DNA of 64,000 bases from an uncultured Acidobacteriota bacterium (GTDB lineage Bacteria > Acidobacteriota > Thermoanaerobaculia > Gp7-AA8): contig CAWGHO010000001.1 of the NCBI GenBank assembly GCA_963822445.1, positions 96,001 to 160,000 of the forward strand. Direction: 5' to 3'. Of the stretch, positions 1 to 51,006 are shown piece by piece. The notes beneath the pieces are model-generated. The model searched no databases, was not told where the DNA came from, and saw only the letters and a list, made by a program, of their open reading frames with translations. The first letter of the stretch is position 1. Every line of letters begins with the position of its first letter. The translations under genes were made by a program, and so were the position numbers.

Positions 1-539
1 CGAAAGCGCGCACCGGTTGACTCGATCCGCCCTAACCACTCAACGCGGTTCTCGTCGCTGAAGACCGAGCGACCCGGTGTTCGAATGCCTCGTGCGCGGA
101 ACAACGCTTTGATCCGCAGCATCGTCCGAGTGGCATCGTCGACCAGGTTCATGTAGCAGCGAACCAGCTCCTTCAGGGTGAGCGTGTCGTGCAGCGCGTG
201 GAACACCGGCGTGAGCGCACCCAGCCGAAGCAGCTCCGACAGGTGGTCGGCATCCAGCTGATCACTTCTCTTCGACACCTCACTTCGGCCACGCGTACAG
301 CACACCACCATTCTCTCGGCATGCGGCACGATCAGATCGTGCAGCCACTGCGCCTGTGTTCCTTCCTCGAGCGCCACCCGCACACGTGATCCGAGTCCTC
401 TCACGAGATTCACGATCGCCGATCCCTCCGTCGGTATCGTGGCCCGCATTCGGATCGCGCCATCCTCGCCTCTGACACTCGCAACGATTGTTGCCTGGTG
501 AACGTCGAGAGCGAGATACTGAATCGCCTGATGTTTCAT
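1..539 (-). CDS. IS110-family (DEDD) transposase/recombinase, N-terminal part; runs off the window start
   Basis: Manual translation from ATG 539: MKHQAIQYLALDVHQATIV...VALEEGTQAQWL...KRSDQLDADHL. This shows the LDVH, E and D-x-x-D residues of the IS110 RuvC-like domain. SD-like AAGGAG lies upstream. Absent from the ORF track because no stop is in the window. Confidence 0.9.
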   Translation of the reverse strand, partial: MKHQAIQYLALDVHQATIVASVRGEDGAIRMRATIPTEGSAIVNLVRGLGSRVRVALEEGTQAQWLHDLIVPHAERMVVCCTRGRSEVSKRSDQLDADHLSELLRLGALTPVFHALHDTLTLKELVRCYMNLVDDATRTMLRIKALFRARGIRTPGRSVFSDENRVEWLGRIESTGARF

Positions 540-609
540 GGCAGCCGCTCCTTCCTTTCGTTTGTTGTTTCCAGCTCCAAACTTACAGGAAGGAGCGTGC
601 TCTCATCAT
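1..609 (-). mobile_element. IS110-family insertion sequence (partial); end near 605-611
   Basis: Transposase plus a ~70-nt non-coding end carrying an 11-bp inverted repeat (cgctccttcct 546-556 / aggaaggagcg 587-597). The element ends a few bases before GTTAGGC. The exact boundary is uncertain. Confidence 0.75.
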
Positions 610-611
610 GC

Positions 612-618
612 GTTAGGC
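612..618 (+). other. Integron core site (GTTRRRY) opening cassette 1
   Basis: GTTAGGC is the exact reverse complement of the inverse core GCCTAAC at 3350-3356. Confidence 0.75.
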
Positions 619-3541
619 CGACCGCACAGAACGGCAAAAACCGTCTCGATGTAGAATTCGTCCGAGGTCGCAATCACTGATGGGACGATATGCAGATCAA
701 ATCGCAGAGTTGGAGCTTGTGCGTCAAATCGATCGGAATGTTGGCGTCGACGGCATCTCACGCTCGGACGCGCAGAAGTTATCAGCCCTCGTTATGGAAG
801 TCGCCGACACCGCCGGCCCGCTCCTGAGTCGCATACCTGTTGTCTTTAAACAGTATACAGAGCATGACCTGGGTCATTCGCGTAATCTGATCGATCTGAT
901 GGGACGATTCATTCCACCGGACACGCTCCGCAATCTGAATGCGCTGGAGCTTTCGTTGCTAGTTATCGCCGCTCTTCTGCACGATATTGGCATGTTCGTC
1001 ACTGACGCAGAGAAATCTGATGTTCTTTTGTCGGACGCGTTCAGGGCGTTTGTGGCGGCTTCCCCCGAGCGGTTCCGAGTTCTAGAAGCATCATCATTGC
1101 TACCCAACCCGCGGCAGGCCATCGAAGATGCGGCACTGGCCGAGTTCTTTAGAAAACGCCATCCCGAGCGCGCGAAGGCTATCATTCAGAGTCTTTTTGC
1201 TGAACGTCTCGTATTCGCCGATGTAGAACTCGCTCCCCTCGTCGGCGACATCTGTGAGAGTCACGGTTGGCCCGTATACACAAGTGATGATCCTCGGCAG
1301 CCCGAGCGAGCAATCGCGAAGTCGCTGAAACGCATGCAGCCTGTAGGCGGATTACCGTTCAACCCCCAATACACCGCCTGTTGTCTGCGACTCGCCGATA
1401 TTCTCGACTTCGACCGCTCACGTACGCCGTTGGCATTACTTCGCACCATAACGGACGAGGTTTCTCAGCGCGAGTGGCTCAAGCATCTGCAAATCACTGG
1501 TTGGAGCATCCGAGCACACGAGATAGAATTCTACGCAGCGTGCCAGCACCCGGCTCATTATGTCGCGATTATGGAGTTTCTAGAATTGGTCGACCATGAA
1601 TTGCGCGACTGCCGACGACTAATCATGCGTGAAGCGCCGGCCGAAATTTCTGCGAAGTATGCTTTCCATCTGCCGCCCGCCGTCGAGCGAATGTACGTTG
1701 AGATGGCGGACAAGAGCTTCGCCGCCGGCGGATTTCGCTTCCGGCTCGATTACGAACGAATATTCAAGCTGCTTATGGATAGAAGCCTCTACCCTGACGC
1801 TAGCTTGTTCTTGCGGGAGTTGCTGCAAAATTCATTAGATGCCTGTAGGGTGCGTCGTGCAATGATTGAGGCTGAGGGTGCAGCTCAATATTATACGCCG
1901 TGTATTGTCATATCTGTAGGAGCGCGCACTTCGTCAGGTACGATCCTGAGCTTTCAGGACAACGGTATCGGAATGTCGGAAGACATTGTCAGAAACTACT
2001 TTGTGCAGATTGGGCGGAGTTACTACCGCTCGGGAGAGTTTAACGCGGTCCGGCATCTACTCGCGGATGCGGGGATTGAGATTGAAGCGACATCCCAGTT
2101 CGGAATCGGCTTCTTGTCCTGTTTCATGGTTGCGGACCACATTGAAATTGAGACATTTAGAGTCGGTGAGGTGCCGTTACGTGTCACAATCGAGGGGCCA
2201 ACGAAGTATTTTCTGGTTCGTCGTCTCGCTGCACCACCGCCGCCCCAGATTGCCGCTGTCGCCAAGACGTTAGACGAGGACGGCCCTCCGAAGTTCGTCG
2301 GCACGCGCGTCACGATTCGTATGCGTCCTGACGTGGATATTGACGTGCAGGCGCTTTTGGGCCGGTTTGCAGCGAACGTAGAGTGTGACGTCATCATTAA
2401 AGAAAAGAATCGGCGCGTGGTTCAACAGGCATGGATGTGGGAACGCCTGGCGGTTTTGCCGTCGGCGCTGCCCACTTCAGTAGGTCGTTCGGCCTATGGT
2501 GACCTCGTACCCGAGCCCCAGGCTGTCCCTTGGGCGCCTAAGTTTGATGACGTCCTGATGGCGATCGATGTTCCTCTCGACGACACACAATTGCCTGGCC
2601 GCCTGAGAGGCAAGGCGTGGTTCTGGTTTATCAGAGGGCACGACGGCGGTCCAACACCTTCTCGCGGCTTTCTGCGGATCGGAGCTGACATTCGCCCGGA
2701 GGGCTTGCCGAAGATTGCATCATCGTTTATCGACACAATCGCCAAGTATCTCGATGACTATATCGAACAAGACAAACTCGATCTCACTGAAATATCGAGG
2801 CTAATCGGTTCGGGCGCAGGCGCAACTCTAGCGGAATGGTGGGAACAAAGGAAACCTGAACAACGTCGAGCTCTTCTTGCGTGGTACATCCATCCTATTA
2901 AACGTGATACGAAGTGGTTCCAGAGCGGCGATGCCTTGCGAGCACTACTGTCGCGCGATGACGCGTGGCTGAAGCATCCTGTCAGCTATACCGACGGAGT
3001 TGGAAACACCTTCCCACAGAGTATTGCACTACACGGTGTCGAGGTCACAGCGGGCATTACGCGCTGGGACGCGATGGTGGGCTTTGCGCGGAGACTACCG
3101 ATCCTTAAATTCATGGCGGGTTTCCGCGTCGATGTTAGGCGCGATGCACCGACCCCGGCCGCCAATCGATTATTTTTTGATCCGCAGGAGGGAGCCAAGA
3201 TTGCAGTTCCATTGCTTAACGCATACCTACGGCGTGCCCAACACCTTGTCGAAACACATCCGGACGATGCGGATTGGGCCGTTTGGTACTCTAGCTTTAT
3301 AGACGCAACAGAACGGTCCGCTTATGCGTCACAACTCACATATCGGACGGCCTAACTACTGCCCGAAGCTGTCGCGGCCCGGCTTCGGTCCCGGCGGCCG
3401 AGCCGCCTACATTTTCGCCGGCGTGACGGCGTCACAGCGGTTGCAGTTCGGCAGGCGTTGCGTACACCTTCTTGCCGGCAACCGCTGCGCCGCTTGGGCT
3501 TCGGCACGCGGGCCCTGCCCACGCAGCTTAGGCGATAGACG
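613..3541 (+). mobile_element. Integron gene cassette 1
   Basis: A single ORF between core site 612-618 and attC 3350-3547. The ORF stop TAA lies inside the inverse core. Confidence 0.8.
680..3355 (+). CDS. HD-domain (HD-CE-like) + HSP90/GHKL ATPase fusion protein
   Basis: HD-like motifs YTEHDLGHS, ALLHDIGM and RLADILDFD. GHKL motifs LRELLQNSLDA, DNGIGM, SQFGIGFLSCF and GTRV. The C-terminal ~300 aa are not recognised. Confidence 0.85.
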   Translation: MGRYADQIAELELVRQIDRNVGVDGISRSDAQKLSALVMEVADTAGPLLSRIPVVFKQYTEHDLGHSRNLIDLMGRFIPPDTLRNLNALELSLLVIAALLHDIGMFVTDAEKSDVLLSDAFRAFVAASPERFRVLEASSLLPNPRQAIEDAALAEFFRKRHPERAKAIIQSLFAERLVFADVELAPLVGDICESHGWPVYTSDDPRQPERAIAKSLKRMQPVGGLPFNPQYTACCLRLADILDFDRSRTPLALLRTITDEVSQREWLKHLQITGWSIRAHEIEFYAACQHPAHYVAIMEFLELVDHELRDCRRLIMREAPAEISAKYAFHLPPAVERMYVEMADKSFAAGGFRFRLDYERIFKLLMDRSLYPDASLFLRELLQNSLDACRVRRAMIEAEGAAQYYTPCIVISVGARTSSGTILSFQDNGIGMSEDIVRNYFVQIGRSYYRSGEFNAVRHLLADAGIEIEATSQFGIGFLSCFMVADHIEIETFRVGEVPLRVTIEGPTKYFLVRRLAAPPPPQIAAVAKTLDEDGPPKFVGTRVTIRMRPDVDIDVQALLGRFAANVECDVIIKEKNRRVVQQAWMWERLAVLPSALPTSVGRSAYGDLVPEPQAVPWAPKFDDVLMAIDVPLDDTQLPGRLRGKAWFWFIRGHDGGPTPSRGFLRIGADIRPEGLPKIASSFIDTIAKYLDDYIEQDKLDLTEISRLIGSGAGATLAEWWEQRKPEQRRALLAWYIHPIKRDTKWFQSGDALRALLSRDDAWLKHPVSYTDGVGNTFPQSIALHGVEVTAGITRWDAMVGFARRLPILKFMAGFRVDVRRDAPTPAANRLFFDPQEGAKIAVPLLNAYLRRAQHLVETHPDDADWAVWYSSFIDATERSAYASQLTYRTA

Positions 3542-3547
3542 TTGGGC
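3350..3547 (+). other. attC recombination site 1 (198 bp)
   Basis: R'' GCCTAAC, 5-nt spacer TACTG, L'' CCCGAAGC, then TGTCG ... CGCA, L' GCTTAGG, spacer CGATAGAC, R' GTTGGGC. Extra unpaired bases fall at the expected positions. There is an internal IR cagcggttgc 3435-3444 / gcaaccgctg 3478-3487. Confidence 0.85.
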
Positions 3548-3588: not shown

Positions 3589-4672
3589 ATGACCTGTTAA
3601 CCTAAGACGTACGAGGAACGTTTTACTGCTGCTCGGAGTATGTTTGCTCTCGTTGCCGTTCCTCAACGCGCACGCGAGTGGTCGACGTCGCGCCGTATCG
3701 CCAGGTGGCTCGCTCGTCGGTCCACCTCATCCAGTACGACTCGGAACAATTCCCTCCGATGCCGAGATTGTCTACCATCAGGATCAACTTATTTATGTGA
3801 CGAATCGCCAGCGTACGGTCGTCACCCAAATCACATTTGACAATCCCAGACGGTGGGAGCACGTAGCCCTTTCGCACGATCGGCGCTTCGTAGTAGCCAA
3901 CGAGCAATTGCCGAACCCAGCCGGCGAAGCTGGTGGTTTTTCGCGGCTTTGGATCTTCGACCTGAGGGCCGGAACCGAAGCTCGTCTGCTTCCTGATTTT
4001 CTTACGGCGGGGAATGGCGGCGTCGATTGGGACGCTCAAGGATTCATCTTCTTCGCAGCGAAAGAGAAAAATGTAGTTCCTCATCCAGAGTCTCGTGCCG
4101 ACTTCCTCGCCACTGCGGGAGCCAACGATATCTATCGAATTCGCTACGACGGAAGCAGTCTTCGACGCCTTCTCAACACCTCTCTCGCCGGCGAGGCTGA
4201 TGTCTCCGTCTCGGAGGACGGTTCTCTGGTGACCTTTCGCTCGCAGCCCCTCGACGATGAGACTCACACAGAAGTCTGGTTTGAACGCCGATGGCTCGAA
4301 TCCAGGCCTGGTCTATCGAGGTGGGGCGAATCGGGTTAGCGGCGTCCATGATCCGGAGGTTTCCCCCGACAACTCCTACATTGTATTCAGCAAGGTCAAC
4401 GCGGATGTGCCACCCAACTTTCCTGAGAATCCGGACGCAAACACGGCACATGACATCTGGCGTATAAGGATCGACGGAACCGATGCAAGGCGCTTGACGC
4501 GCGCCGGCCCCATCTCGATCACGCCCCGATTGGAGGGGCGACGAGATACTCTTCCTGCACATCAGCGAAACCGAGCGCTATGCTGGCTTAGCTGTTGTAA
4601 CAGTGGATGCCACGGACCAAACTCCTATACGCCTCGGCTCAGGTCCCCAACATCCCCAAGTGGATTCCGTAG
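3589..4672 (+). pseudogene. Secreted TolB/PD40-like beta-propeller protein (cassette 2), frameshifted (real decay or assembly error)
   Basis: Signal-like PVNLRRTRNVLLLLGVCLLSLPFLNAHA. Repeats IYRIRYDGSSLRRL, VSEDG, PEVSPDN and IWRIRIDGTDARRLT are spread over several frames. Shifts occur near 3592, 4280, 4527 and 4648. Confidence 0.7.
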
Positions 4673-4695
4673 CTAGGTGACTCAACCGATTCGCC

Positions 4696-4857
4696 GCCCA
4701 ACTACTGCCAGGAGCTGTCGGCGGGGTTCACCGCTCCCGGCGCTGAGGCGCCTCTTGTCTCCCCGAGACGCACGGCGCCGCATGCATCCGGGGCCTCGCC
4801 ACCGCTGAGGCGACGAATGTCAGACGCACGCAGGTCGGCGTGACTAACTATTTGGAT
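4696..4857 (+). other. attC site 2, right half degenerate
   Basis: GCCCAAC (complement of GTTGGGC at 3541), then TACTG CCAGGAGC TGTCG, nearly the same left arm as attC1. The right arm only partly matches (cgcaggtc ... tttggat). Confidence 0.6.
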
Positions 4858-5309: not shown

Positions 5310-5656
5310 GACACGTTTCCTTTCCCACGCACCGCGGGCTAATACTACCTGAAGGCCGGAAGGATGTACGTGGCCGACTCGCTGAGCTTGCTAAGTACCT
5401 CAGCTACGAGTCATTCGGACGGAAGAAACCTGTTGCAGGGAGGTGGGCGATCGCGACAGGCCGAGGGCGTCGAATTTCGTTGCCGAGCACGGTACGCATG
5501 GCGCGCGTCAGCGGGAGAAAGCATAGCGTCAGTGGAGACCGGCGCCCACCTACTGCCAGCAGCGGACGGCGGCCCGCTCCAGATGTACGAACGATGGTAA
5601 GTGTTCCTGCGGCGCCCGTGCAGAATCATGCCGCACAGACGGTCGAGTGGAGCGAG

Positions 5657-6782: not shown

Positions 6783-6860
<78 letters not shown>

Positions 6861-14119: not shown

Positions 14120-14197
14120 AGTCGTTAGTCGTTAGTGATTAGTCGTTAGTAGAACGCGTCCGGGCTACTAACCACTAACGACTAACCACTAACGACT
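14120..14197. repeat. Inverted tandem-heptamer hairpin (GTCGTTA x4 / TAACGAC x4)
   Basis: 4 units + GTAG, a 12-nt spacer, then CTAC + 4 inverted units; some variant units. Confidence 0.9.
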
Positions 14198-14235
14198 ACG
14201 CACTGATAACATCGGAAAAAGGGAGTGGAACAGCA

Positions 14236-17963: not shown

Positions 17964-18058
17964 TTACGGGGTTACGGGGTTTCGGGGTTACGAGGAGGAA
18001 CCGGCCTCACTCCGAAATCTCATCACCCCGTAACCTCGTAACCCCGCGACCTCGTAAC
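17963..18058. repeat. Inverted tandem-octamer hairpin (GTTACGGG x4 / CCCGTAAC x4)
   Basis: 4+4 units between convergent genes. Confidence 0.9.
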
Positions 18059-38309: not shown

Positions 38310-38389
38310 AGTCGTTAGTCGTTAGTGGTTAGTCGTTAGTAGAAACCATCGCCACGTCCTACTAACGACTAACCACTAACGACTAACGA

Positions 38390-38392
<3 letters not shown>
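38309..38392. repeat. Inverted tandem-heptamer hairpin (GTCGTTA x4 / TAACGAC x4)
   Basis: Perfect 34-bp arms including the variant GTGGTTA/TAACCAC; fills the whole mutS-yfhO gap. Confidence 0.92.
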
Positions 38393-40969
<2,577 letters not shown>

Positions 40970-50601: not shown

Positions 50602-50707
50602 GTTTCGGGGTTCCGGGGTTGCGAGGTTCCGGGGTTGTCCTCGCAACATCGCCGAACCTAACGCCGAGCTCCTACCCCGTAACCCCGTAACCCCGCAACC
50701 CCGTAAC
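50601..50707. repeat. Inverted tandem-octamer hairpin (GGTTNCGG x4 / CCGTAACC x4)
   Basis: 4+4 units between convergent stops; same family as 17963-18058. Confidence 0.9.
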
Positions 50708-51006
50708 TACGATTCCAGCGCCTCCAGCGTCCCCAGAATCGTCTCGATGCGATCGCGGATCTCGCCGCGCTCCTTCCGGAACCGCTCGTGTTCTTCTTCG
50801 AGTGATTCCAGGCGCGAGGAGGTCTGGTCGGAGTCTTTCACCTGCGACTCGAGCTCTTCGACGCGGGCTCGGAGCTGGTCGCGTTCTTTGCGCAGTTCCT
50901 GGATGGTGGCGACGGCTTTTTCGACGCGGTCCCCGAGGCGGCTGAGGATCTCGGCTTCTTCGATTCCGGGGAGCGCGGACTGATCGTTGTCTCTGGTCTT
51001 CTTCAT
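50707..51006 (-). CDS. zapB: Cell division ZapB-like coiled-coil protein
   Basis: LSRLGDRVEKAVATIQELRKE...IRDRIETIL coiled coil. Confidence 0.65.
   Translation of the reverse strand: MKKTRDNDQSALPGIEEAEILSRLGDRVEKAVATIQELRKERDQLRARVEELESQVKDSDQTSSRLESLEEEHERFRKERGEIRDRIETILGTLEALES

Follow-up and report, generated by a model that had tools for sequence, protein, structure and literature searches.

The first 611 bases of the window, by which we mean the whole stretch of 64,000 nucleotides that was analysed (G000:C1:96001-160000), are the left (5') part of an insertion sequence (IS) of the IS1111 type within the IS110 family, with its transposase on the minus strand. Our preferred explanation, which we consider likely, is an RNA-guided insertion at an attI-type site that heads a cassette array devoid of an integrase gene, by an IS copy that is frameshifted. 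Positions to the left of the window are given in the coordinates of locus L002, which takes in a further 12 kb on that side and in which each window coordinate is raised by 12000 (Table 1).

The element, its ends and its recombinase gene

The IS was delimited by comparison with its relatives, since both ends could be located in 16 of 21 oriented copies (L026, from an unpublished genome, is among the 21 but outside the 16) and likewise in 61 of 80 further loci. When read in the orientation of the transposase strand, all copies start with GCAT.TTGAAAGC directly after an RYYYAAC box and finish with ...TTGACAATCGCTTTCATAGAAC, beyond which the sequences of the copies are unrelated. AAC is found on the IS strand at both junctions, and the subterminal repeats ATGAGAGC/GCTCTCAT are set five bases in from either end. 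In contigs from four soil-metagenome runs, which are 88-95% alike, the similarity is lost at L002 11066/7 and 12623/4, and their loose ends fall exactly there. These contigs represent relatives and not this copy, and their loose ends are independent support for the IS ends; all sequencing runs with matches had small shares, at most 0.10, and no RNA run was among those listed. Because relatives place the end at window 611, the IS abuts the GTTAGGC box that opens the first cassette. The first-pass annotation, made from the window alone, had noted an IS110-family element at the window start that runs against the cassettes and stops close to this box, with only IS sequence and no attC half to the left of it inside the window; all of these points were borne out, the transposase lying on the minus and the cassettes on the plus strand. 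The layout of the ends is that of the IS1111 group, that is, a left end of 72 nt, a right end of 406 nt and subterminal inverted repeats (7-17 bp in the group).

Both the first 640 bases of the window and the protein were found once in the 6.0-Mb genome, which thus has a single copy of the IS. A second IS110-family element, 25% identical and 1466 bp long, is present in three copies that are 99.9-100% identical; two of them share the left flank GGACGCCGG, and none of the three lies in an integron site. On the minus strand at L002 11061-11088, TTGACG of the right IS end and TAGTAT of the flank make up a promoter-like site (9/12, spacer 16), with no other in the 2.1 kb that was searched; it points out of the IS to a Rieske/DUF2231 gene 390 bases away. 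Further left, an intergenic stretch of about 40 bases (L002 10845-10885) has counterparts, as 87-93% identical repeats, at unrelated places in at least seven genomes of the same genus.

The N-terminal DEDD (RuvC-like) domain of the IS110 family and IS1111 group, PF01548, was detected with 33.4 bits in the window part of the transposase and with 29.7 bits in the full ORF (L002 11490-12539, minus strand; cut-off 29), and the C-terminal Transposase_20 domain, PF02371, with 44.3 bits in the full ORF (cut-off 21.3). The NCBIfam model NF033542 gave 111.7 bits against a cut-off of 140, as scored on the in-frame part of 290 residues only. The protein is 57-68% identical to relatives of 354-355 residues, and these full-length proteins switch frame near residue 290 when aligned on this copy, whose tail past about that residue is out of frame. 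Compared with this copy, the contigs of all four metagenome runs contain one extra base after L002 11674, and therefore either this copy has undergone a one-base deletion or its assembly contains an error there. With a one-base deletion in its recombinase gene, the copy is probably immobile by itself.

Table 1. Positions of the element, its predicted RNA, the cassette array and related sites. Plain numbers are window coordinates; C1, C2 and C3 are contigs of the same genome.
Feature	Position	Strand	Remarks
Whole IS	C1:95067-96611 = L002 11067-12611		1545 bp; ends from relatives and metagenome contigs
Left IS part within the window	1-611	-
Right IS end, ...TTGACGATCGCTCTCATAGAAC	L002 11067-11088
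Far flank, GCCTAAATACTA	L002 11055-11066		read as left half of the attI-type site
Left non-coding end	540-611	-	72 nt; subterminal inverted repeat and hairpin covering the ribosome-binding site
Subterminal inverted repeat, GCTCTCAT	599-606		pairs with right-end copy
Transposase gene, first 179 codons	3-539	-	ATG at 539; PF01548 and PF02371; runs leftward past the window
One-base deletion in transposase gene	L002 11674/5
In-frame stop of transposase gene	near L002 11473
Bridge/seek RNA core (predicted)	L002 11269-11414	-
Target guide AUACUAGU	L002 11388-11395
Target guide GCCUAAC	L002 11347-11353
Donor guide AAGCGU	L002 11316-11321
Donor guide AUAGAAC	L002 11277-11283
R box GTTAGGC	612-618	+	recombination-site box opening cassette 1; left target-guide match
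Core GTT	612-614	+	repeated at both IS junctions (AAC on IS strand)
Cassette 1 ORF	680-3355	+	891 aa; HD-CE domain and HSP90/GHKL-type ATPase domain
attC 1 (GCCTAAC...GATAGAC-GTTGGGC)	3350-3547	+	198 nt
attC 2	4696-4825	+	degenerate R' box (GTCAGAC)
attC 5' fragment	near 5546
AATAnnAGTTAG site	C2:2119398		attI, 350 bases past intI stop and before first cassette (GAAATAGAA/GTTAGGCCGAC)
AATAnnAGTTAG site	C2:494831	-	head of integrase-less array
AATAnnAGTTAG site	C3:161315	-	head of integrase-less array
Second IS110-family element, approximate starts	C1:330088, C3:254275, C3:745377

A predicted guide RNA and its match to the flanks

The first-pass annotation had expected a guide RNA in the short end seen in the window or, preferably, at the far end outside it, and had suggested folding both. 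The far end proved to be the right place: the 406-nt right end, which lies 3' of the transposase gene, encodes a predicted bridge (seek) RNA with the target and donor loops of the IS1111 group, and its guides match both sides of the target. The 72-nt left end folded with -33.7 kcal/mol (z -6.08; none of 200 shuffles was equally stable) into a hairpin over the ribosome-binding site; it offers no loop matching the target and was rejected as the seat of a guide.

An alignment of 52 distinct sequences, covering 190 bases in and about the conserved portion of the right end, yielded a consensus fold with two internal loops, in which 98.4% of the cells form standard pairs and 16 of the 29 pairs show compensatory changes. 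None of 500 shuffles reached these values, and slid partners paired to at most 47%. The single-sequence fold was no more stable than shuffles (z 0.70), and a search of Rfam gave no match at E up to 1. In the target loop, the 5' strand consists of a variable stretch followed by GU(U), and the 3' strand bears GCCUAAC. In the donor loop, the 3' strand AUAGAAC equals the right IS end, and the 5' strand AAGCGU is complementary to AC+GC.T of the left end; elements whose left end begins with ACAAC have GUGU instead of GCGU in this guide. Within each loop, the order of the guides is reversed relative to IS621.

The IS1111-group element comprises a DEDD/serine recombinase gene and, in its right end, the predicted two-loop RNA. 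One strand of the target loop, GCCUAAC, is identical to the R box that opens cassette 1 when this box is read on the bottom strand, and the other, AUACUAGU, can pair with AC+TAGTAT, which forms the A/T-rich left part of the site. As the guides match both halves, we propose that recombination directed by the RNA placed the IS at the AAC/GTT core of AAATACTA/GTTAGGCCGAC (here and below, the slash in a site marks the junction). We infer that this RNA is transcribed and directs the recombinase.

Guides were compared with flanks in 48 of the 52 elements, namely those with 12 flank bases on each side, the right match being anchored on the core. In this copy, 8 contiguous bases match on the right and 7 on the left. 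A right match of seven or more contiguous bases was found in 23 of the 48 self pairs as compared with 0.85% of 2246 non-self pairs, and a left match of seven or more in 37 of 48 as compared with 24%. Ten elements with unusual left flanks carry matching guides (GGGCTAC, GGATGAC, TCCCTAC in the public locus L060, GCGCAAC, GGCCGAC and others). Guides and flanks co-vary across the relatives. The rule for the right guide is not strict, as fewer than six contiguous bases match on that side in 22 of the 48 elements. L104 and L105 have the guide AAAUACUAGU, yet they are located in attC (match of 2), a right match of only 2 was also found in L084, which is in attI, and in L066, and a metagenome copy whose guide appears to be the same is flanked by ATCTAAAA/GTT, which agrees with the guide in about 6/10 bases. 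Because poor right matches are so numerous, the left guide and the core look dominant and the right guide permissive. A T at L002 11396 in all four metagenome runs would make the guide of these relatives AAAUACUAGU, with a 10-base match to the window's site, though the comparison covers the best-supported differences only and the rest of the guide is putative in the metagenome copies.

The cassette array and the interrupted site

The GTTAGGC heptamer alone is not above chance (three matches versus 2.5 expected; 46 of 100 shuffles reach three), and it takes its meaning from context, not from frequency. The ORF of cassette 1 terminates within GCCTAAC-TACTGCC...AGCTGTCG, the 5' end of the attC family of this genome, whose full form is GCCTAAC-TACTGCC-AG.AGCTG...AGCTYAGGCGATAGAC-GTTAGGC. 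Cassette 1 is real, the cassettes run on the plus strand, and the IS is antisense to them. The same attC family is found downstream of the single integron integrase gene of the genome (TIGR02249, 456 bits, C2:2118113-2119048, plus strand; the only one of nine matches above the cut-off), where the attC-opening motif has 63 exact plus-strand copies in about 105 kb (C2:2.1216-2.2264 Mb) and GGCGATAGAC precedes 50 attC R' boxes of this main array. This large chromosomal integron (C2:2118113-2226400) has intI and its cassettes on one strand; its attC sites, at about 130-200 nt, are unusually long and belong to a few sequence types.

Several features of the window's array and its surroundings were recorded in passing. 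The protein of cassette 1 scored 178.6 bits for HD-CE and gave a weak partial PADLOC match to the DRT UG24 model; the gene may have a role in defence. Cassette 2 (3644-4676) resembles a frameshifted beta-propeller gene, with overlapping plus-strand ORFs at 3644-4339 and 4257-4676. A tRNA-Arg(CCT) gene lies on the minus strand at 6783-6860, about 2 kb past the last full attC (4696-4825), and the cassette-like region between attC 2 and this gene contains small ORFs on both strands with signal-peptide-like starts. Two types of tandem arrays of 7-8-base units (ACTAACC/ACTAACG and CCCCGTAAC-like) are each present at two distant places of the window (14151-14220 and 38345-38400; 18009-18058 and 50674-50715).

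With the IS removed, the junction is AAATACTA/GTTAGGCCGAC, or, in a longer plus-strand reading, ...CAGCCGCCTAAATACTA/GTTAGGCCGACC. This reconstituted site is unlike the 3' ends of attC sites (GGCGATAGAC/GTT) and resembles the attI beside intI of this genome, the sites that head two further integrase-less arrays and the attI of related genomes. Apart from the IS-split site, AATAnnAGTTAG occurs at only three places in the genome, all of them of these kinds (Table 1). Thirty intI loci were scanned, namely that of this genome and 29 from related genomes (two of them, L126 and L129, unpublished), and in many of them an A-rich pattern precedes the first GTTRRRY box after intI, e.g. GAATACTA/GTTGGGC in L148. 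The window's site has the form of a simple site, i.e. a GTTRRRY box that follows non-attC sequence, without an attC stem. No attC body was found on either IS flank, and the 12-base far flank is not followed by TACTGCC...AGCTGTCG...GCTY. Given the likeness to the AATAnnAGTTAG sites and to the intI-proximal sites of related genomes, and the lack of an attC body, we read it as an attI-type simple site heading an integrase-less array and not as an attC. It does not lie between an intI gene and a first cassette: neither an intI gene nor a remnant of one was detected within 4 kb upstream of it, or of the heads at C2:494831 and C3:161315, and the only intI of the genome is on another contig, so the name attI rests on sequence likeness. 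The integrase-less arrays at these two heads, both on the minus strand, open with attI-like AAATAnnA/GTTAG.

The first-pass annotation had instead assumed that the IS entered a complete attC and split it, so that the R''-L''...L' part should be found beyond the far IS end. Such insertions would be in keeping with the habits of the family, many relatives adjoining the RYYYAAC box of a real attC (e.g. L050, L052, L092 and L103), and the far flank does open in an attC-like manner, GCCGCCTAA.TACT. This likeness, however, is limited to 12 bases, the flank being only GCCTAAATACTA; no attC body extends leftward from it, and no attC motif is present in C1:84001-95066, the upstream sequence up to the IS. 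When scored for pairing with a far-end attC, this copy reached at best -1.5 (p 0.38), no better than shuffles. Its target guide fits the present junction with 8 contiguous bases, as against 3 of 6 for the lineage's attC, and fits neither TACTGCC nor GTCTATCGCC. The attC left half that was to be sought beyond the other IS end is absent, and we regard the splitting of a complete attC as extremely improbable. What holds of the earlier idea that the element is programmed against the lineage's attC is its aim at integron recombination sites; attC as the target of this copy does not. Nor do other copies sit in unrelated places, since the relatives occupy related targets, several of them attC. Since integron sites have two core boxes in inverted orientation, a flank with an attC-like start need not belong to an attC, and the present site is a clear case in which it invites misreading.

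A decayed attC deserves separate consideration: an earlier loss of L''...L' might have joined R'' plus TACT to R', and the IS might have landed later in the remnant. The far flank agrees in 13/15 positions with the opening 15 bases of the attC consensus of the lineage (GCCGCCTAACTACTG), which counts against reading the site as attI, and a 136-aa plus-strand ORF that ends 14 bases upstream of the GCCTAA box looks like a cassette ORF. But this ORF belongs to no Pfam family and lies within the 390 bases upstream of the divergent Rieske gene, no further attC stands upstream of the candidate remnant, and attI sites beside intI share the site's form. Moreover, L093 and L104, which are only distantly related, have the same guide (AAUACUAGU-like), as soil copies apparently do; the target type is therefore a recurrent one and no single remnant. 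A decayed attC thus appears to us quite unlikely.

Arrival of the array together with the IS, by transfer or rearrangement, would move the insertion to another place, possibly a true attI whose integrase was later lost. Synteny with genomes of the same genus ends at the start of the Rieske gene, where homology stops and beyond which no empty pre-insertion sequence was recovered from them, and in one of them (G121) the genes beyond the array are 350 kb away and inverted. Further in favour of it, the IS is single-copy and frameshifted and has a long branch (0.44) in the recombinase tree. No remnant of an integrase is left at the locus, however, and joint arrival concerns only the place of the event and is compatible with insertion at an attI-type site; we hold it to be a possible course of events, though on balance an unlikely one.

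The site heads an array of two to three cassettes without its own integrase gene, and the IS lies antisense to the cassettes. Cassettes can enter genomes at attI-like secondary sites. The GTT triplet of the site is what we take to be the crossover point of the integrase, and for this reason the IS would separate the array from upstream sequence and occupy the place where cassettes are added. Both the use of the site by an integrase and the effect of the IS on the array are thus presumed, the former from sequence.

Relatives and comparison with known systems

Transposase relatives (E<=1e-40) were detected in 27 of 127 genomes of the order, a count that takes in this genome and two unpublished ones, G093 and G094. 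The unpublished genomes G093, G094 and G037 are the source of L026 and L040 in this survey and of L126 and L129 among the intI loci, and none of our conclusions rests on them. In a collection of species-level genomes, 188 stretches were found, most of which belong to Acidobacteriota (Thermoanaerobaculia and others) or Gemmatimonadota, with a best identity of 68% and nothing closer; the relatives that we aligned or tested are mostly from uncultured soil bacteria. Scanning metagenomes with the 18-base right end gave 38 loci, mostly distant relatives, among which only L170 has an attI-like flank. Among the IS110-family genes of plasmids (300 matching records in the 72,556 plasmids of PLSDB), the best tblastn identity was 29.6%, so the element is not a close relative of these, and, as judged by sequence against the plasmid members (<30% identical), its lineage is new.

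Two relatives on Gemmatimonadota contigs, L093 and L084, do lie between an integrase gene and a first cassette. Their intI genes, whose products are 58% and 55% identical to IntI of the window's genome, are on the opposite strand and separated from the right IS end by 110 and 225 nt; after the integrase gene come the attI left half, the antisense IS and the first cassette, in the same order as in the window. Similar A/T-rich flanks are found in L066 and L170, both on short contigs. Among the relatives adjoining attC, L050, which has the same genus and attC family as the window's genome, is inserted directly after R'' in the sense direction, and L053 and L103 apparently lie at the far end of the attC as seen from a nearby intI; since the two attC boxes are inverted repeats, either end offers RYYYAAC on one strand. 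The test for a far-end attC was positive for 5 of 55 distinct elements at p<=0.01 and for 8 at p<=0.05; it is a weak test, and many more elements show a GTTAG box by eye. No such pairing was found for this copy, L084 or L093. A duplex-energy variant was noisier and was not used. In L054 (and L042) and in L061 (and L029), the right IS end is followed by internal sequence of the IS itself, which in L054 starts directly after the DNA coding for the left guide (GCCTAAC/CACAGG); the guide-coding DNA seems to act as a landing place for a further copy, from which nested or tandem partial copies result.

In a tree of 53 recombinases, L093, L104, L066 and L084 form one group (support 89/80) within Gemmatimonadota, and the window's element has its long branch inside a 100/100 clade of Acidobacteriota. 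Its donor-loop stems are of the Acidobacteriota type. Although the element belongs to this different clade, L093 comes closest to it in the target loop (here CUCGG.A.AUACUAGUCCG, GCUGAGG, AACUCUAGG), which is nearly the same in both; an exchanged target module and convergence are both plausible explanations. With L093, L084 and L066 of the Gemmatimonadota clade in sites of this kind, and L104 joining them by its guide type, we tentatively suggest, with slightly less than even confidence, that some IS1111 elements of soil Acidobacteriota and Gemmatimonadota are programmed for attI (bottom strand), insert at the crossover triplet and cap the array.

The principle of such targeting is not new, because RNA-guided attC targeting by IS1111 elements is already published. 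The accessible parts of the literature describe IS1111-attC elements with seekRNA matches to attC, the seekRNA lying downstream of the transposase gene and two short segments of it matching the two target strands, with the top-strand match 5' of the bottom-strand match (PMC11187229). They also describe the short left end, the long right end containing the RNA and the subterminal repeats of IS1111 elements (PMC11208160), an antisense position near the 5' end of attC (PMC3001079) and ISPa21 in attC sites of class 1 integrons (PMC11616780). As far as these parts go, the present element and the IS1111-attC group (ISPa21, ISPst6, ISKpn4, ISPa25) are alike in their aim at integron sites and in the place of the RNA and the order of its guides. 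They differ in that this copy, with no attC body on either flank, is in an attI-type site and not in an attC, in which several of its relatives do lie, and in that L050 follows R'' in sense whereas the published elements are antisense. The accessible account of the bridge RNA of IS621 and the IS110 group (Durrant et al. 2024) shows the same target and donor loops, two guide strands in each and a shared core. Here, in contrast, the RNA follows the gene on its 3' side, (A)AC seems to form the core, and no Rfam model matches. Group IIC-attC introns, according to the accessible part of PMC3001079, resemble the IS in being mobile, specialised on integron sites and antisense to cassettes, but they are retroelements that read the folded attC and are related to it neither in sequence nor in mechanism.

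In the accessible parts of the IS1111, seekRNA and bridge-RNA literature on integrons, a body of work taken without Tetu and Holmes 2008 and Post and Hall 2009, we found no description of insertion into attI. To the known systems, the present data add a new landing place, with attI instead of attC in some elements, and a natural series (48 elements tested for guides against flanks, 52 aligned) in which target guides change with the flanks, a field record of RNA reprogramming. If some elements are indeed programmed for attI, their insertion would block cassette capture at the one site that no integron can do without, and transcription from upstream may no longer reach the array; this would bear on why some chromosomal arrays stay static. 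Of these results, the variant directed at attI and the series of relatives with co-varying guides and flanks most deserve to be retained.
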